From Ruditapes philippinarum (taxonomy: Eukaryota), in assembly GCF_026571515.1 (NCBI RefSeq), contig NW_026865611.1:62001-126000 (forward strand): DNA of 64,000 bases, written 5' to 3'. Shown piece after piece: positions 4,401 to 54,943 of this stretch. Made by a program: the position numbers and the translations under genes. The notes below the pieces were generated by a model. The model did no database searches. It was not told the origin of the DNA and was given only the letters and a program-made list of their open reading frames with translations. Numbering within the stretch: position 1 is the first letter of the stretch; every line of letters begins with the position of its first letter.

Positions 4401-7400
4401 CGCCGCTCTGAAGATAAACAGTTTCTATCTGACCCTCTCTAAACTGTTTAATTTAATTCTTTTTATAAATCATGGGACAAACTTGTTTACTTTAGTCGTG
4501 ATAAGATGAAAGAATTGAAATTCTGATAAAAGTTAAATAAACAGAAAATCACATAATGATCTTTCCTCTAGAATATAAGTGTGATAGCTGTAGTCGAAAC
4601 AGTGTTAAACTTTATAACCAGCTAGGGTTAGTGAGAGATGTTGCACTGATATAAATTATCTCTCATCGAGCCGATTCTGCAATTTTCATATTATTTTTTC
4701 ATTGATTCCGAACTAATGTTAAGTAGTATAAGCTCACATAAGGTAACTAAAATCATTCTTTAAAGGCCCATTATGCCCATGAAATTATTTCATTTGTAAT
4801 AATAATTATCGGAAACATGCTATTTTTGATGTCTTGTTAAAGGTTCTAAAACTTTTTTACTGGCATATAACCTAAATCATATTTTGCTTTTGTTACATTT
4901 TTGCAATTAGTGTACAGTTGATTTATTACTTTGAATGGAAGTCAAAGTACTACTTTATTTACATTTTGCTTTTTAATGACATTTAATTGCACATTTAATG
5001 CTACTTTTTTAAGGTAACAAGCATCTTACGTGCTTAAAACCATGATCGATTTACAGTTTTTAAAACAAAATATAAAAAGAAAACACACACACAAAAGAAA
5101 ACTTACCGTGGAGTGTTCAGCTTTAATTATCTTTTATAAATAATACTGTAATATGTTTACAAGTACGAGCAGAGCCGACAGATATAAATGTTTGACTGAC
5201 CTATTTTTAACGTAAAGAAAGACAGTTGTTTAACCTCTGTAGAGCAATCACCTTCCGGGAGGCAAAGATTTCAGTCGCTTCCCAGAGGTGTTGCTCTAAA
5301 AATATTAATTCTAATTTGAAGTCTTACTTTTGAGAAAAGTAAGACTGTTGTAAAGTATGTTAGCTGGCAGTTGCTCTACATAGAACTCAATAGAATTTTT
5401 ACTTAAGTCTACCATACCTGTGGGTAAAGCTAGGAAAAACAAGATGGCCACAGCGATTGTGGTCAAGCACCCACTTAAACAGCAAATCTGTAAGTCCTCC
5501 ACTTCCTCTTCATCTATAATGTAAATAAAGTCAGTGTTTATAATTGAGCCGCGTCATGACAAAACCAACATAATGCGTTTGCGACCAGCATGGATCCAGA
5601 CCAGCCTGCGCATCCGCGCAGTCTGATCAGGATCCATGCTGTTCGCTATCAGTTTCACTACTTGTTATAGGGTTTGTTAGCGAACAGCATGGATCCTGAT
5701 CAGAATGCGCGGATGCGCAGGCTGCTCTGGATCCATGCTGGTCGCAAACGCATTATGTTGGTTTTGTCGTGACGCGGCTCAAATATACAATGTTTGTCGA
5801 TGTCGTCGTGGGATATATTGATATACAATGTATAATATTGATAATCTATTAATAAACAATTGATATGAATATGCATACGTATACCTAATATACCACGTGT
5901 CAAATAATTATAACAAGAGGATATTTAACTGTTATATACATACCAAAATAACTGTTATACATACCAAATTAACTGTTATAAATATCAAATTCACTGTTAT
6001 AAATAGCAAAATACATGGAAATTATATTATGTTAGAAATATATTGTATTCACACAGGCCAGCTGCTAGTTTTCAACATTGTAAAATTGTTTTGAAAACGC
6101 TTCATTCGTGTCATATATAAACTGCTTATATCTTCCAATTAACAATGGCAACATCTCATCCTAGCTGCCCTCGACATTCTTAAATTTAAACGCTGGTATC
6201 ACCGAAATAATAAATAATAATTAACCGTATAAACCTAATTTTGCAAAAAAGGATGCAAATTATTGCGTGTACAAAACTTACTTTGTCAGAGTTTCTAAAA
6301 AAGAAAATTGACACCATAATTCGCATTTAAAAGGATAAAATATGTTTCAATATGAACACATTACTTGTTATGCAATTTAATTTTTGTTTCCTGCATGGTG
6401 TCTACAGGGACATTATTCTGAGATATAAAAAAATGAAAACTCATGAATCAGTCTCTATTTATGAAACGGAAGCTAATTAGAATGAAGTATTTGTTCTCCG
6501 CGTGAAACAAAGTATGTGTTAATACAACACGTGTTTACGCGTGTTCTGTTCATTGTTTACATTATAGCTAATTGAAGCCTGGTAGAAACCTGTTATATTT
6601 TAATACAAAACACTCGCTTTTTGTTCTTTATTGTTTATAAATGATAGATCTCTTCTTATAAACTGTTAAACACACTATAATATTTATATACATTGTTTTT
6701 GTAATGATTACAATATTGATAAGCCGCTTACAACGATAAGAGAATTGGAGGAATTAAAATAAATGCTATACTTGAAGAGCGTCAATGACGAATTGACCCC
6801 ATCCTGTCTTATTTCAAGTACATTTATAAGATAGCCTAGAATTCTGTAGTATTTGTATCAAACATAATCAAATTATGAGCCGCGTCACGACAAAACCAAC
6901 ATAGTCCGCGCAGTCTGATCAGGATCCATGCTGTTCGCTATCGGTTTTTCTACTTGTTATAGAGTTTGTAAGCGAACTGCATGGATCCTGATCAGACTGC
7001 GCGGATGCGCAGGCTGGTCTGGATCCATGCTGGTCGCAAACCCATTATGTTGGTTTTGTCGTGACGTGGCTCATTTTACGTATTGTTTTGTTTTGACAAC
7101 CATACGTATTTTGGAATCAGTCCACTAATATCTTTCGATGTTATAACGTTAAAATTTCTATTCATGTATGTAAGATATCATATTTTACCTTCTTATGCTC
7201 CATTAAATATTTGTTAAACTCCTTTAATCAAGACATGGTCAGTTGTTTTACAGTCTTCGGGCATTTTATGGTATCATTTGATGACAATAATAAATACACT
7301 TTGATGTTTAAGAAAATATCTGTACAAAACATCATGTATATGGTTTATATTATATTAAATACATTTGTGTATGTACACGTCGAAATTTATATTGAAAGTA

Positions 7401-11480: not shown

Positions 11481-11724
11481 ATTGTTATATCCCTTAAACA
11501 AAGTGCATACAATTATCATCTTTTATAAGGTATCTTTACCACCATATTTATTGTAAGTTATAACAGTACTTGTACGTACTAGTACACAATAATTAATTGC
11601 TTTCTTTTTCTAATTGCTAGCAACACTATAGAATAATAAATAACATTATAAATAAACAAATGTAAATTTTATCTCCTTTATTCATTTAAGGTACACAACA
11701 AGCTAACAAGTTGGTGAAGAGAAA

Positions 11725-14700
11725 ATGGCCGACCAACAGCCAGATGGATCTCCTAGAGAACGCCGTCGAAGCCGGAAACAAACGATTTTGTCACAGGGCC
11801 CGCCGGAATTTGCGTCCATTTCAATCGACGGTGATAAAAATGTTCCTGTTGCTGACACAACTGATTCCGAAACAGATGACTGCGTTTTTAAAGATAATTT
11901 AACAGACAATGCATGCGAAATTTCATATGATGAAAGTCATTCTAAAGAAGTAAACGACGCTAAACAAGAGAATCACGAACACGCAGCCACTAAAATTGAA
12001 AATGACATAATCAGTAAAAAGAATGAGGTTCCGGATATTGTTTACGATGAAACAAAACCAAAAAGGCTTTCGCACAATAGGCCTCAGAAATTAGACTTAG
12101 AAAGTCACAGTTCTAATACTTTACATGAGACTATAAATTTTCTTATATCCCCAGATGATAGCCCAACCAGAAGGAAAAGACGGGCTCTAAATACAGTGCG
12201 ATCAGAGCCAACAATCGGGAACCACAGTAACGATTATAATCATGAAGCACTTGACAGTCATGCAAGAGAAAATCACCGAAAGCATGATACTGATCCGAGG
12301 AGTAAACAGATGCAAACGTTGAAACAAACACATTACGAACAAAGTCCTGAAAGTACTCGGAGAAAGGTATCATCACCAGTACAAAGACTTATGGTAAAGA
12401 ACAGTGCTCTAGCGGCTGCAGCGGCAGCAAATAGCAAAGACCGAAAAGGTTCATCAGAAGCCAGACAAACGAACAACGCAAATTTTGTCTATGTTGGACC
12501 AAGACGTAAGATTTCGTCCGATGCTAGACTAGAACATCGTCATATAGAAGAAAGCCTTTCCCTTCCAACAAAACAAATGCCAAAAAGAAAGGTCTCATTC
12601 GATACAAGTGCGTTAGTTAATGGAAACAAGATTATGCCATTAAACGATGAACCAATTTTGAAGGAAAAACCAGAACATATCATAGAAGAAATATCCGAGC
12701 CTCAAGCAGAATATGGTGTTGATGAGGAAAGCATCAAAGAAAGTCCTAGGCTTGAAATTAAGATCCCAAAAGTCATCTTTACAAGCGATGATGATGAAGG
12801 TTTTGTTCAAAATGAAAGGGAAAGTCCGAGAAACGACGAGAGTGTGAGCGAGAATAGCGAAGAAGGTGAGGATGGCTATGCTAGTGGTTGTGATAACAAA
12901 GCGTACGTGAGAGACGAAGATGAACATGTACAATCTAACGGATCACTGGATACAACCAATGAAAGATTTACAAATTTTCAAAGTGAGGCTCATAGTAAAC
13001 GAGGGCGGCGTCTTTCACCAATGTCGGCTCAATCATACACATTTGAAGAAGCTGCTGTCATTCCACATATGAATGTGGATCATTTAACAATGGATAGAAG
13101 TGTTTCAACTGGTTCGATTGGCTCCTACAGTGGAAGACGTATATCAGCATACGACGACCAATCTCCACCAAAGTCAATTTTAAAAACGAGACTTGAAGAT
13201 GCAGAATCCGTGAATTCCGAGATCTCTGTCAAAAACTTCAAAGTCAGGAAAGATTCCATTGCCTTGTTTATGGACCAACATGGTGAAATAGCTATGCAAG
13301 AGTTAATAAAACAGCATGATGAAAAGTTCAAATGCTTTGGAAAAGACGATATTAAACAGGTAATTTGACAATTATGCTTCATTTAAATGGAAGGTATATA
13401 AGATATAATGAATACAGATGTCAAATTGATGAATGCTTGTCTATAGGTCAGACAATTGTGTATAAGTAATACATGCTCTTGGTTTAAACTTATTTATTTA
13501 AGCTCGATTGCGAAACAAGTTCTTGCAACTTATTTTAATCAAGTCCGCTTCTTGGAACAAACCAGTACTGGTGTCATATGAAGAAACATGGTCGTGACCC
13601 GTTTAGGGCTCGAACCCATGATCCTTTGGTTGCGAGGCAGACACCTTGACCGCTAGGCCACCTCTCCTCTTATATGTTAACTTGAGTGCAAAACAAAGAT
13701 GTTATTCATTGATAAGTGTCTAATGGGAACAGAACAAGGTCTGTCTGTATAAATATTGATTTACAAACAAAGAGTCAAATCAAGTACTCATGAAACCAGG
13801 ACAATTTGAGAAAATTTAATTCATTGCAAGTAAATCGTTAAGTAAATGTATTTAGAAAGAAACAGTGTTAACTTATAGCTGGCTTTTATTTACTTAAGTC
13901 CCAGTTAGTTCTATCATAACTTGCAAATGTGGGGTATATGATGCCATTCCATTTCATTGCAACTAATTTGAGTTCATCTCAGTTATACATGAACATATTG
14001 GAAATGATACTGTCGTCACTAATATCTTTGACAAAAATTGAAAAAAAAACACCGATAATAATGTATAATTTAAACAATACATTTGAGTATTCATATAAGT
14101 ATCCACCATTTTTTAACTTGTTGACTTTCTCTTCTATTTCAGCTTTGGGAAAACCGTAAAATGCTTTTGGAAAAGTACAAACTTCACTTACTAGTTCTTA
14201 CACTATTCCTACTGACCTTCTCCTTCGTAATAGTGGGGTTACATTTCCACAGCGAGCATCATAAAAAGATGGCCTCTTCTCAAAAGGTTTTCTTTGATGC
14301 AAAGCTGAAAACGTTAACGCTTAGTGATACAGAAAACTGGGACACATTGACAGGGTCGTTAGGTTTAGATATACCTTCATGGAAGATGCCAATACATTGT
14401 TATCCTAATTACAAGAAGATCATGGATAAAACTTGTTTGAAATGGAAAGAACACGGTCAGTTGGATATTGCTTATTTCATCAAGAACAACACACAATGCT
14501 ATAATATAACTTGGAATCTGTTACCAGGAACTTCCGCTTATGACTGTTACGAGATAGGAGGTAGAAGCTGGTACGGACCTTTAAACATGACAAAATCACA
14601 ATGGCCAATCAAGTCAAATCCTTTTAGCTTTACTGTTAGTAAGTCAAAACACCATGGAAGTGGCACGTTTTCGTCGGCTGTGGAATATTATTGGTTGTCG

Positions 14701-16173
14701 TCACGGGGCGAGGCGGTAGTTGTCGATTCGAACTTCCCATTAGAAGTTAGTTGGAACAAAAAGAAACCAGGCTCTTTTTGTGCAATAAGTAAGCGTTCTG
14801 GGGATTTCTACAGCAAAACAGTAACAGCAAAACGTACATTTAGCTACTCAGTTTGCAATGGAATAGATATTCAAACCACGCATGCGCTGATCAGAGAGAG
14901 GTTTTATCCTGCAATTACTAGCTTACCAGATAGACAATTCTTAGAGAATCCTCACTGGTCAACAGTAGCAGATTCCGATGATTTTCGTCTAAATGATACG
15001 GTCGTGTACAATGTTGCCGACGCTATAAAAAACAATAACCTCAACTGTAGTTCTATGGAATTAGACGGGCAATGGGAACACAGATACGGGGACCTAACTT
15101 TTAACCCAAAATTGTTTACAAACATGTCTGACCTTGTTCTTCATGTTGCTAATGCAGGTTGTGAGATATCGTTAAACGTTCACCCTTTCTTTAGCTTCCA
15201 TTCAGTAAATTTTATCGAAGGGATGAATAGAGAATATTTTGTGGAGGATGCAGGTGGGACTGTCCCTGCTCTTCTAAAATGGGAGCATGGAGTTGGTGCT
15301 ATGTTAGATGTTTCGAATCCTGCGGCTCGTGATTGGTATGTGGGTAAGATCAGGAGAATTTCTTCTAAATACAATATTGATACGTTCCGTCTAGTGTATG
15401 GGACCTCCGCATGGGTTCCAAAGAATCCGGTATTTCACAACGACGGTATAAGTCCAACAAAGGTTAAGCTATTGTTTTCTGATTTGATGGCTTCTTTGGG
15501 GAATGTTGTTCTTGAAAGCACATCTCAGTCACAGCATTTGTCCACTCTGGTTGGAATTTCATCTTCTGTTGTCACTTCAGGTGACAAATTTTGCCTGAAA
15601 AATATAATACCGGAAATACTTAATTTAGGTCTTATGGGCTATCCATTTGTCTTATCAGATGGGTTTGATATCGATGACAAACACAGAAACAATGATGATT
15701 TTATACTTCCGAGCAGAGATCTTTATATTCGATGGATGCAGCTTTCGGCATTCCTTCCAGCTGTTAGATATACCGTAAAACCTTGGTCGTATGACGCCAA
15801 AGTTATTGAGGCCTCAAGGAATCTCACAAAATTTCATAGCGATGTCGTTCTTAATACTATATTCAAAGCAGGTGAAGACATTCTCAAAGGTTCTCCAGTT
15901 GTTCAACCCATGTGGTGGAATCGGTCAAATGATAAGAGGACATTTTTAATCGATGATCAGTTCGTTTTAGCCGACAAGATCTTGGTGGCGCCAATTTTGT
16001 GTGAGTGTCATATAGATGAAGATTTAGCGGAAAGAGACATTTATGTTCCAGAGGGAGTGTGGAAGGATGCCAGTCACGACAAGGTTATCATTGGACCAAG
16101 ATGGATAAAGAATTATAAAGCTAAACAGTTTGAAATTCCGTATTTTGAAAGAATGTCAGAAGCTACATATTGA
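11725..16173 (+). CDS. MYORG: MYORG-like (KIAA1161/NET37) glycoside hydrolase family 31 type II membrane protein, 1221 aa, exons 11725-13359 and 14143-16173; probable pseudo-enzyme
   Basis: Acceptor ttcatttaag| at 11690, phase-0 donor AAACAG|gtaatt at 13359 and acceptor ctatttcag|CTT TGG at 14143 join the 547-aa and 670-aa ORFs in frame. TM helix LLVLTLFLLTFSFVIVGL. GH31/MYORG motifs: EYYWLSSRG, PHWST, YGDLTFN..LF, LDVSNPAARDWY, LGLMGYPFVL, LYIRWMQLSAFLP, DDQFVLADKILVAP, RDIYVPEGVW. The symbol denotes family similarity, not proven orthology. Confidence 0.88.
13481..13667 (-). mobile_element. tRNA-derived SINE (family S1, Meta-like core) in the MYORG-like intron
   Basis: Minus strand GGTGGCCTAGCGG (A box)...GGGTTCGAGCCC (B box), core CATATGACACCAGTACTGGTT..CCAAGAAGCGGACT; highly similar to 51558-51752. 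Confidence 0.8.
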
Positions 16174-16824: not shown

Positions 16825-17400
16825 TTCGATAAGTAGCTAAATCATACCGACAACAGTGCCGAAAACTAGCTACAACATACCAATAATGTATCGAAAATTA
16901 GCTACACCATGCCAATAATGTGTCGACAACAAGCTACTACATGCCAATAATGTGTCGAAAACAAGCTACTACATACCAATGATGTGTCGAAAACTAGCTC
17001 AACATACCATTAATGTGTCGAAAACTAGCTTAACATACCAATGATGTGTCGAAAATTAGCTACAACATACCAATAATGTGTCGACCCAAGCTACAACATA
17101 CCAATAATGTGTCAAAAGATAGCTCAACATACCAATTATGTGTCGAAAACTAGCTACAACATACCAATAATGTGTCGAAACTATAGCTACAACATACCAA
17201 TAATGTGTCGAAACTATAGCTACAACATACCAATACTGTGTCGAAACTAGCTACAACATACCAATTATGTGTCGAACCTAGCTACAATATACCAATTATG
17301 TGTCGAAACTAGCTCAACATACCAGTAATGTGTCGAAAAATAGCTCAACATAGCAATAATGTGTTGAAATATATTTACAAGACACCAATAATGCGTCAAA
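16825..17400. repeat. Minisatellite, 31-33 bp unit, ~17 copies
   Basis: Unit ATACCAATAATGTGTCGAAAACTAGCTACAAC; central copies are most homogeneous and there are no unique spacers. Confidence 0.92.
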
Positions 17401-17771
17401 ACTGATATGATATCAAAAACTATCTGTAATTTTCGTATGATATATAAAATATGTAATAGTATTGTTAGTAATCGAGATGCATTTAAATGTACGTATCATT
17501 TATTTTTCATACATCATTTATTACTATTGCCATTTCGTACACTTTCAGATTTTATAGAATGTGTATGTTTCTTAGACAAAATTAATATATATCCACTCAA
17601 AGAGACTTTTATGAAAGTACAAGCATACATGATCATTGTACTTGAAAAAGAAACATTTATACATCGGTTTCATTGCTGCATTATGTACGGTCAACATTAT
17701 TCACTGTTTATAAATTAATAACTACATTGAATTTGAATAGTTCTTTTTTACTCAAAACTTTTGTATTTATG

Positions 17772-53126: not shown

Positions 53127-54943
53127 CTAAGCCAATTTTACGCTAAGTATTTTGATTATATCACGACACGGAAAAATCATTCCTTTTTCAGATGAACAAC
53201 TAATGTACAGTTTATGAGTTCTATCATTGTAATATACGGCAACTGGATTATAAAAATCAGTTTTCTCTATACCTACAATTTCACATTTCTTGAAGGTGCT
53301 CGACAATCTTACAATATTGCTACTGTCTTTGTAGCAAACTAACATCGTACCATCATCCAACTCTTGTATTCCTTTAGGACATTTATATCCTTGATCCTCG
53401 AATCTTTGTACACTTTTACCTTGCCAGTCTACTTTTACAACTCTACTATGCTGAGTTATCTGATCAGATACAACTATGAACTTCTCATCACTGCTGATAA
53501 CAATCTTTTCGGGCCCATTAAACAATCCAGGAGTATCAAACACCTGTATCATATTTCCGTCTAAACCCAGAATAACCAGCTTTCCTGGACTGCAATTACA
53601 GCCTACTACTAGCTTGTCCTGACAATAAGCTACACAATAACACCATTCTCCGACATCTATACGACGATCTAAAGACAAACTAATGTCAGTGTAAGACATT
53701 ATCTGAATACACTTTTCATCAAATAATGCAACAGCAAGTTTGTTTTGCGGAAGTTTTATAACATCTGTTGGTGATGAAGATAGGATTATCTCTGATACCA
53801 GCGTTCCTGTGTCTATATTAATTATTTTAATTTTGTTATTGTTTTCGTCAGCGACGATCATATTTGTTGTGGAAATTAGTACCATTCCAGAGATATCGCA
53901 TTGTTTATTATCAGAGGAGTATTTCACTCGCATTGTTCTTTCATATTGGACACATTCTGCACTTTCTGCACAAGGTCTTCGGTATGTTGTTATCCTTCCT
54001 AGAGATTTGTTATTTTTCAGCTGACCAAGCATCATTTCGTTTCGGATAAATTTGACATGGCCATCCGTTTTATTATTTTCAACCAATTGTTTCTCTTCAT
54101 GTGATAGTTTTGCAACTTGGGGTTCAACATGTTTCATCTCAATAAACAGCTTGTTCTGCTTGTTTTCGTCACTCAGAGACTTGAGCATTGACATTGTACT
54201 TGACATTTCCTCTGCGATATGTAAGCTACCTGTTTTTATATTTTCTTGTTTACACTTTGCTGACAGTGCACAAGATTTAGCGTCCCTCATAATTTCGGCT
54301 TCCATCTTATCCAGACATTCGTTTATTTCATTTCTGAAAACTTTGATATCTTCAACAACGGACTTGTACATTTGTTCTATGTTTGCTGTAGCAGACTCGG
54401 CAATTGTGACATTACATTGACACTTTTGAATAAGTGGCTTCATTCTGTCAATCAATTTTTCAAGCTCATTAGACACATTTCTTGAAACATCGGGAATATA
54501 GTCTACTTTGCAGTGCTTGTGTTCTAGAGTCACACACACGTAACAGGCATATAGAATTTATGTGTGTTTGACATACCAGAATTCCAGTAGTTTGTGCGCT
54601 AGTGTTTCGTACAAAAAATCAGTTATTTGATGCATTTTTTTTTACATTATTCCGCGTCCTTCAAATTTTGTCTGCCTGGCATTCTAGATCATTATATGCG
54701 ATAGACTGAGCACACAGGAAAAAGCTTTGGTTATGCCAACAGAGTAGTGTTGCAGGTAGCACGTTGGTAGTAAGGAGTGTTTATGATTTCCTAATGGTGT
54801 TTATAACAACTCTTACAAAGATGTTCCTCGCAGTCCTGGCAATAACCAAAAGCTGGTTCTTTTAAGCCATCTCTGTCGCATGGAAGGCAGTAAAGATTGA
54901 AATCTTGTTCCGAAGAAACAGCTAATTTCCCTGATACTTCCAT
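53127..54943 (-). pseudogene. RING-less TRIM-like gene (B-box1, B-box2, coiled coil, NHL-like beta-propeller); 5' part disrupted (pseudogene or assembly error)
   Basis: Acceptor tttattccag| before 54950, ATG 54943: MEVSGKLAVSSEQDFNLYCLPCDRDGLKEPAFGYCQDCEEHLCKSCYKHH* (TAG 54793-54791). B-box2 remnants (CTKH, LEFW, YACYVCVTLEHKHC) lie in shifted frames. An intact 470-aa ORF follows with coiled coil and NHL-like repeats (ISGM..MIVADENNNKIK, PTDV, PKGI). Confidence 0.75.

Follow-up and report, generated by a model that had tools for sequence, protein, structure and literature searches.

The DNA analyzed here, a stretch of 64,000 nucleotides from the clam Ruditapes philippinarum (NCBI RefSeq assembly GCF_026571515.1, contig NW_026865611.1, positions 62,001 to 126,000 of the forward strand), is called the window below, and all positions are counted from its first letter. 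Its forward strand carries a gene with two coding exons for a membrane protein related to human MYORG, a glycosidase of family GH31. The first coding exon encodes a long N-terminal tail that is predicted to be disordered, and the second encodes a single predicted transmembrane (TM) helix followed by a MYORG-like ectodomain, for a spliced product of 1221 amino acids (Table 1). The ectodomain has kept its fold and lost its catalytic residues throughout a mollusc-wide group of orthologues, and the protein is probably a non-catalytic membrane scaffold that would dock protein phosphatase 1 (PP1) through a conserved RVxF motif in its tail.

The first coding exon is one stop-free open reading frame (ORF; 11725-13359, 545 residues), as had been recognized in a preliminary description, made from the sequence, that placed a single 1.6-kb exon ahead of the TM helix. 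The frame opens at 11707, after an in-frame stop at 11704-11706, and the ATG at 11725 is taken as the start because this stop lies directly upstream and because the N-terminus of the Mercenaria orthologue matches. The junction 13359^14143, which the same description had drawn between the two ORFs, is found in six of seven distinct public runs, from six studies (four of four in one set and three of four in a second, with run X1 in both), and a single 3109-nt X1 contig spans 12285-16176, including the RVxF, PxIxIT, and SILK motifs and the entire GH31 exon. These runs are assembled contigs, none of them labelled RNA. In run X20 the joint is missing and the contigs cross both exon borders, as in DNA; because a GT..AG skip is absent from this DNA-like run, it is best read as splicing elsewhere. 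At the 5' end, contigs cease aligning near 11681, with 147-209 extra letters beyond, and at least one further 5' exon lies upstream, although its place was not found with the contigs of the public runs.

Full-length orthologues of 963-1288 residues occur in eight named bivalves (Mercenaria, Mactra, Mya, Dreissena, Sinanodonta, Ylistrum, Tegillarca, and Solemya), and the Mercenaria orthologue is 62% identical over the tail. At least 36 coding variants were recorded, 14 of them amino-acid-changing; none of these falls in the RVxF, PxIxIT, NxxY, SILK, or RKDSIAL motifs and one (S244L) lies in the RKGSSEAR unit, numbers that are too small for a test.

Table 1. Positions in the window of the gene and of the features of its product (aa, amino acid residues; KD19, Kyte-Doolittle hydropathy over 19 residues; AF2, AlphaFold2)
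Feature	Position	Strand	Basis
5' untranslated start of first coding exon	11691..11724	+	sequence; acceptor AG ends at 11690
Coding exon 1: tail, predicted disordered, probably cytosolic	11725..13359	+	sequence, AF2, no hydrophobic stretch
Conserved island DIVYDETKPKRL, aa 104-115	12034..12069	+	alignment; YDxTxP recognizable in Sinanodonta and scallop
Three R-K-x-S-S units, aa 212-271: RRKVSS, RKGSSEAR, RRKISSDARLEH; likely kinase sites, likely internal duplicates	12358..12537	+	shuffles, conservation
RVxF motif KRKVSF (aa 287-292), then hydrophobic pair in predicted beta-hairpin (aa 296-303) and PLNDE; likely PP1-docking module	12583..12651	+	consensus, conservation, AF2
PKVIFT, PxIxIT match; possible calcineurin site, weak	12766..12783	+	consensus, alignment
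GCDNKAY, NxxY/F type; possible PTB or FERM sorting signal	12886..12906	+	alignment
PPKSILK, SILK match, C-terminal to RVxF	13165..13185	+	consensus, alignment
RKDSIALF, basophilic site at start of predicted juxtamembrane helix (aa 509-531); most conserved tail element	13246..13269	+	alignment, AF2
Intron, 783 nt, GT..AG, phase 0	13360..14142	+	contig joint, sequence
Coding exon 2: TM helix and MYORG-like GH31 ectodomain, 676 aa plus stop	14143..16173	+	sequence, domain search, fold
Single predicted TM helix, ~aa 559-580, basic residues before it	14182..14247	+	KD19 2.44
Val963 at place of MYORG nucleophile D463 (FKFDAGE)	15394..15396	+	alignment to 7qqh
Ser1019 at place of MYORG acid/base D520	15562..15564	+	alignment to 7qqh

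Human MYORG is the best sequence match of the ectodomain (E 1e-89, alignment to PDB entry 7qqh), and MYORG is also its best fold match (template-modelling score 0.77, E 2e-46, Foldseek against the PDB). The N-terminal beta-sandwich, the TIM barrel, and the proximal beta-sheet domain are all present, with matches to PF01055 and PF21365. One TM helix lies N-terminal to the GH31 part, and hydropathy and sequons together point to a type II orientation; eight N-glycosylation sequons, and two cysteines that are invariant in and specific to the clade described below, all fall in the C-terminal part.

The active site tells a different story from the fold. In MYORG, the nucleophile is D463, the acid/base is D520, and nine residues contact the sugar (PMC9491548). 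At these nine places the clam protein keeps D353 and W426, changes K461 to arginine, and loses W321, D354, D463, R504, R517, and D520, the W321 column being read from the pairwise alignment only. Counted over the galactose-binding set (W321, D353, D354, W426, K461, R504, and R517), two residues are kept, one is conservatively changed, and four are lost, and thus neither this set nor the nucleophile and acid/base aspartates of an active MYORG alpha-galactosidase are in place. Among 37 rows of the clade, the nucleophile column holds Asp in one, the acid/base column holds neither Asp nor Glu in any, and no row has both aspartates. Judged by its residues, the GH31 domain is catalytically dead across the mollusc-wide orthologue group. 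The clade also conserves residues of its own: besides the invariant cysteine pair, these are an asparagine within a sequon and four residues (Gly, Tyr, Ser, and Gly) in or close to the active-site motifs. Such a set fits a folded lumenal or extracellular domain under selection for a non-catalytic job.

That the loss is a property of an orthologue group, and not of one clam gene, is seen in the phylogeny. A profile of the exon-2 region was searched against 1.84 billion representative sequences, and the best 150 of 11,153 matches were kept for an alignment of 171 rows. The clam protein falls in a clade with members from Solemya, scallop, an ark clam cluster, Sinanodonta, Lottia, Aplysia, Lymnaea, Nucella, and Octopus. 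Support for this clade is 0.93 with FastTree (167 of the 171 rows), 96 by the Shimodaira-Hasegawa-like approximate likelihood-ratio test (SH-aLRT) on 54 rows, and again 96 by SH-aLRT on 35 rows under a mixture model (IQ-TREE quick search). Branching within the clade tracks the mollusc classes, as expected for one orthologue group, and in all three trees the clade stands apart from the catalytically intact MYORG-like proteins. The protein had initially been described as MYORG-like with an N-terminal extension; it must instead be regarded as a separate pseudo-enzyme paralogue from which both catalytic aspartates have been lost.

The same genome carries five more MYORG-like loci, of which three keep FKFDAGE (the acid/base exon could be read in two of these three) and two, L004 (G000:C1706) and L005/L007 (G000:C3691), lack this catalytic motif. 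The former of the two, L004, falls in a sister clade of dead mollusc copies with members from Octopus, Solemya, and Mizuhopecten. Further dead GH31 rows are those of Lingula, Tachypleus, and insects, and a similar motif ahead of the TM helix is seen in many of them. An insect clade (P0105, P0111, and P0133, from Leptopilina, Anopheles, and Schistocerca) consists of GH31 proteins without the acid/base Asp that have tails of 250-430 residues with basophilic sites, and the dead insect clade has its own, different conserved juxtamembrane motif. The dead rows all lie to one side of the active rows (SH-aLRT 95-98, with long branches and an outgroup chosen by the analyst), and a single origin of all dead GH31 copies is possible. 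Tails are longer in dead than in active proteins (82 versus 18 rows, P 0.0015), a difference that carries little weight given related rows, exon-only fragments, and a search seeded from the dead clade. No second copy of the clam tail was found in the genome, and no long tail exon lies in the 10-20 kb upstream of four paralogous loci, where short or more distant exons are possible. Upstream of an active MYORG paralogue, at 5450-7200 of locus L014, lies a long simple-repeat tract that is open in several frames.

The tail agrees, at the level of prediction, with the disordered region that had been proposed. AlphaFold2 gave a mean predicted local distance difference test score (pLDDT) of 43 and a predicted template-modelling score of 0.15 from a 12-row alignment, with a hairpin at residues 296-303 and a helix at residues 509-531. 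Charge and hydropathy also place the tail on the disordered side (0.377 against a boundary of 0.426), and no hydrophobic stretch is present (maximum KD19 0.63). Its composition is mildly biased (S 11%, E 10%, D 8%), and its mean identity among nine close relatives is 39%. Nothing credible was found in the tail with Pfam (top match DUF2729, E 0.19), a search of the ESM Atlas with residues 250-545 yielded nothing above a score of 0.79, a level expected by chance, and LIR (LC3-interacting region), di-leucine, YxxPhi, LxVP, and 14-3-3 patterns are not enriched.

Against this background, short motifs were judged by their chance expectation in 500 shuffles of the tail, by their conservation percentile among the nine close relatives, and by their counts in 13 full-length bivalve tails (four assigned to bivalves by tree position only) and seven other mollusc tails. 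The RVxF, PxIxIT, and SILK matches lie exactly where they had been reported, at 12583-12600 (KRKVSF), 12766-12783 (PKVIFT), and 13171-13185 (KSILK). A strict RVxF match occurs once, against 0.02 expected (P 0.024). KRKVSFD, with basic residues before the motif, an acidic residue after it, and a predicted-disordered setting, fits all three RVxF consensuses given in PMC3792071, in which Asp is excluded at the serine position. On the question, raised in the preliminary description, whether RKVSF is a conserved island, RKVSFD stands above its surroundings at the 98th percentile and the motif recurs in 12 of the 13 bivalve tails. The V/I and F positions, whose side chains enter the PP1 groove, are retained in all 12 tails that have the motif, including Solemya (RKISF) and all four scallop copies, and the corresponding positions vary freely at the RKGSS unit. 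Close relatives also keep a hydrophobic pair after the motif; hydrophobic stretches at this place are known from extended PP1-binding modules. Sinanodonta preserves the order YDxTKP, RKVSxxARL, RRVSF, PLND in compact form, and the tail of the scallop Ylistrum (P0032, residues ~58-150) has three tandem SP[RK]VSFS copies beside a fourth RKVSF.

The SILK match is harder to interpret. It occurs once against 0.04 expected (P 0.04), and PKSILK also reaches the 98th percentile among the close relatives, where it is a conserved island; in deeper bivalves it degenerates. SILK is found at the aligned place in nine of the 13 bivalve tails, PILK and SIMK stand there in two more, one tail has an unaligned SILR, Solemya has none, and the motif is absent from all seven non-bivalve tails. 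The motif sits ~195 residues C-terminal to RVxF, a spacing that had been noted correctly, and this is the atypical side, since SILK is described as always N-terminal to RVxF in the part of PMC3792071 drawn on. From these data a use of SILK in PP1 binding is possible but somewhat less likely than not. The R. philippinarum genome has four PP1-like loci (L017-L020), two of which lie ~14 kb apart on contig C8499.

The idea of a joint PP1 and calcineurin scaffold finds support only in its first half, through the conserved PP1-type RVxF. PKVIFT matches the PxIxIT consensus Px[IVLF]x[IVLF][TSHEDQNKR] (PMC4654906), yet the broad pattern occurs twice against 0.57 expected (P 0.11; P 0.048 for the form ending in T). 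The PKVIFT site is aligned in six of the nine close relatives with identity at the 60th percentile, which makes six of the 13 bivalve tails, and the three deeper bivalves aligned have no match at this place. The companion motif LxVP (L.[VI]P) has no match in this tail. Calcineurin docking at PKVIFT is therefore doubtful.

Two elements missing from the preliminary description are, by alignment, as widespread as the motifs it flagged, or more so. RKDS[IL]AL is found in all 13 bivalve tails, with RKDSIA in the 98-99th percentile band among the close relatives. An NxxY/F motif, of a class that binds Numb's phosphotyrosine-binding (PTB) domain and also the FERM domain of SNX17 (PMC6927325, PMC11589680), is found in 12 of the 13 bivalve and four of the seven other mollusc tails (16 of 20), reaching snails and octopus, although this pattern was set after viewing the alignment. 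These distributions sort the motifs into layers. Oldest are NxxY/F and the TM region; RVxF and RKDSIAL belong to bivalves, strict SILK to the subgroup of Mercenaria, Mactra, Mya, and Dreissena, and PxIxIT to a narrower set still. The PP1 module thus appears to be a bivalve addition, and PxIxIT appears to be a later and doubtful one.

We put at about 0.6 the probability that the protein serves as a membrane scaffold without catalytic function, docking PP1 through the conserved RVxF motif of its predicted-disordered and probably cytosolic tail of ~550 residues. Its topology would be type II, and the lumenal or extracellular domain would carry glycans and disulfide bonds. PP1 would bind KRKVSF and the hydrophobic hairpin that follows, and SILK would add a secondary contact at best. 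A basophilic kinase, for instance protein kinase A (PKA), would phosphorylate the R-K-x-S array, including the serine inside RVxF, and thereby release PP1, and PP1 would reset the tail after kinase loading, making a kinase/phosphatase switch that acts on the tail and its neighbors. We infer such a switch because the RVxF serine is itself in a basophilic site, because phosphorylation at this position blocks PP1 binding in other regulators, and because Asp is excluded there in the consensus. NxxY/F may sort the protein through the plasma membrane and endosomes, and the dead GH31 domain may serve as a dimerizing module or as a binding module for a glycan or protein partner.

Several observations weigh against this proposal. 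RVxF is missing from all seven non-bivalve mollusc tails and from Tegillarca, so that PP1 docking cannot have been what the clade did ancestrally. RKVSF also counts among the ten basophilic sites, and because the neighboring RKISSD is equally conserved, conservation alone cannot separate a docking motif from a kinase site. The 13 bivalve tails are related, nine of them coming from one subgroup, and their counts are not independent, while the low pLDDT is partly due to the shallow alignment. Precedents elsewhere are also discouraging, as a second nucleoplasmic RVxF and a C-terminal SILK in LAP1B did not mediate binding (PMC3792071) and the SILK of Inhibitor-3 adds little affinity (PMC10776994).

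A tentative possibility, compatible with a PP1-docking scaffold, is that the protein mainly assists a transporter or channel, either as an auxiliary subunit or as a trafficking chaperone, in the manner of 4F2hc/SLC3A2. The TM and juxtamembrane helices would then hold the partner, NxxY/F would route it, and PP1 docking would have been added later. It is not RVxF that reaches furthest but NxxY/F and a motif ahead of the TM helix, [YF][KRQI][LF][HKR]. The latter is found in 25 of 30 rows of the clade, in 14 of the 51 dead rows outside it, and in one of 20 active rows, and several positions in or beside the TM helix are near invariant within the clade. Moreover, the scallop orthologue has been automatically named 'SITS-binding protein-like', after SP105, a GH31-like membrane protein of the Torpedo electric organ. 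Such a name is a similarity label only, and the neighboring genes are uninformative.

Returning to the tail itself, another account would treat it only as a multi-site kinase substrate, with RKVSF as one of a duplicated R-K-x-S series, KSILK as a basic patch, and all docking matches incidental. The recurrent basophilic sites that had been pointed out are indeed strongly enriched, with ten [RK][RK]x[ST] matches against 1.9 expected, a count reached in none of the 500 shuffles; the repeat-like units share R-K-x-S, and RKISSD is at the 99th percentile among the close relatives. The side on which SILK lies suits this account as well, as does the rapid appearance and disappearance of PxIxIT sites (PMC4654906). 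We nevertheless consider it unlikely, since the V/I and F positions are held in 12 of 12 tails with RVxF and left free at the RKGSS unit, and since the hydrophobic pair follows the motif in close relatives.

It is very improbable that the ectodomain is still an enzyme, through relocated catalytic groups or on another substrate, with the tail in a regulatory role. The fold and most core residues are retained, the equivalents of D353 and W426 persist, and an acidic residue replaces R504 in 25 of the 37 clade rows. However, none of the 37 rows has Asp or Glu in the acid/base column, as many as 11 different residues occupy the nucleophile column, D354 has become Gly in 33 of 37, and no acidic residue specific to the clade reaches a conservation of 85%. 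Finally, the notion that the two ORFs are separate genes, or that the long exon is an artefact, can practically be set aside, as nothing favors it except that no run is on record as RNA, and it is contradicted by the GT..AG joint in six of seven runs but not in the DNA-like run and by the full-length orthologues in eight named bivalves.

The proposed scaffold has parallels among known proteins, each of them partial. MYORG (NET37, KIAA1161; PDB entries 7qqf-h; PMC9491548) shares the type II layout and the three ectodomain parts, and has a short tail; the clam protein has lost the catalytic Asp pair and most of the sugar-binding residues, has a tail of ~550-555 residues, and belongs to a separate paralogue clade. 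LAP1B (TOR1AIP1) is a type II membrane protein that binds PP1 through an RVxF motif in its N-terminal domain and is itself a PP1 substrate (PMC3792071). As in the clam protein, its N-terminal domain is long and a SILK lies C-terminal to RVxF, but that SILK is not conserved, as it is among the clam's relatives, and LAP1B has a different lumenal fold and resides in the nuclear envelope; no homology is expected. The LAP1B lumenal domain is a dead fold of AAA+-like type. 4F2hc/SLC3A2 is likewise type II, with an ectodomain that has a glycosidase fold, in this case GH13, but no catalytic activity, and with a conserved juxtamembrane and TM region; unlike the clam protein, it has a short tail and a known transporter partner, and PMC7560691 briefly mentions what it does in heteromeric amino-acid transport. 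The clam protein has no Pfam match to SLC3A2_N and does not have a GH13 fold, which leaves a likeness to SLC3-type heavy chains in layout only. Inhibitor-3 and Rif1 (PMC10776994, PMC6506691) combine RVxF and SILK in a disordered chain, as does the clam tail, which differs from such interactors in its membrane anchor and in a SILK ~195 residues C-terminal to RVxF.

A broader proposal, to which we give little credence at present, would place the protein in an old animal subfamily of dead MYORG paralogues, present in molluscs, a brachiopod, a chelicerate, and insects, that act as single-pass receptors or transporter subunits. In bivalves, one member would have gained a tail with PKA-type sites, RVxF, a reversed SILK, and later a calcineurin site, coupling binding in the remodelled pocket to phosphatase recruitment and making it a pseudo-glycosidase receptor.

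Other features of the window were recorded in passing. A high-copy interspersed repeat that resembles a short retroposon, with summed contig depth in the thousands, lies within the intron (~13479-13700), and a 31-bp tandem array of ~18 copies lies downstream of the gene (16826-17403). Upstream, a spliced gene on the minus strand has exons at ~7970-7445, 5513 to ~5416, and ~1696-1497, with the joint 5513/7445 (CT..AC) present in three of four runs; the exon translations suggest a protein of ~130 residues with two hydrophobic helices and a basic C-terminal stretch. A 476-codon open frame on the minus strand (53127-54557) has weak NHL and beta-propeller matches below the Pfam cut-offs.

No description of the dead MYORG clade or of the tail was found in the literature covered, which leaves out most subscription journals, and a survey of mollusc glycoside hydrolases lists MYORG under GH31 activities, with no mention of dead copies in the part drawn on (PMC7560691). 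Proteins of the clade are labelled in databases as 'myogenesis-regulating glycosidase' or as uncharacterized, so that they risk being included among digestive or glycan-processing enzymes. Pseudo-glycosidases are a known kind of protein, as are membrane-anchored PP1 regulators; their combination in an apparently undescribed mollusc-wide family is apparently new. Here a whole orthologue group has kept a fold and lost its chemistry, and in bivalves it carries a conserved tail with a candidate phosphatase-docking motif. The tail provides a clear case of short motifs gained stepwise along a lineage, and a test case for whether SILK can work C-terminal to RVxF. Human MYORG is a cause of brain calcification, and the mollusc proteins provide a naturally occurring case in which roles of the MYORG fold other than catalysis can be tested.

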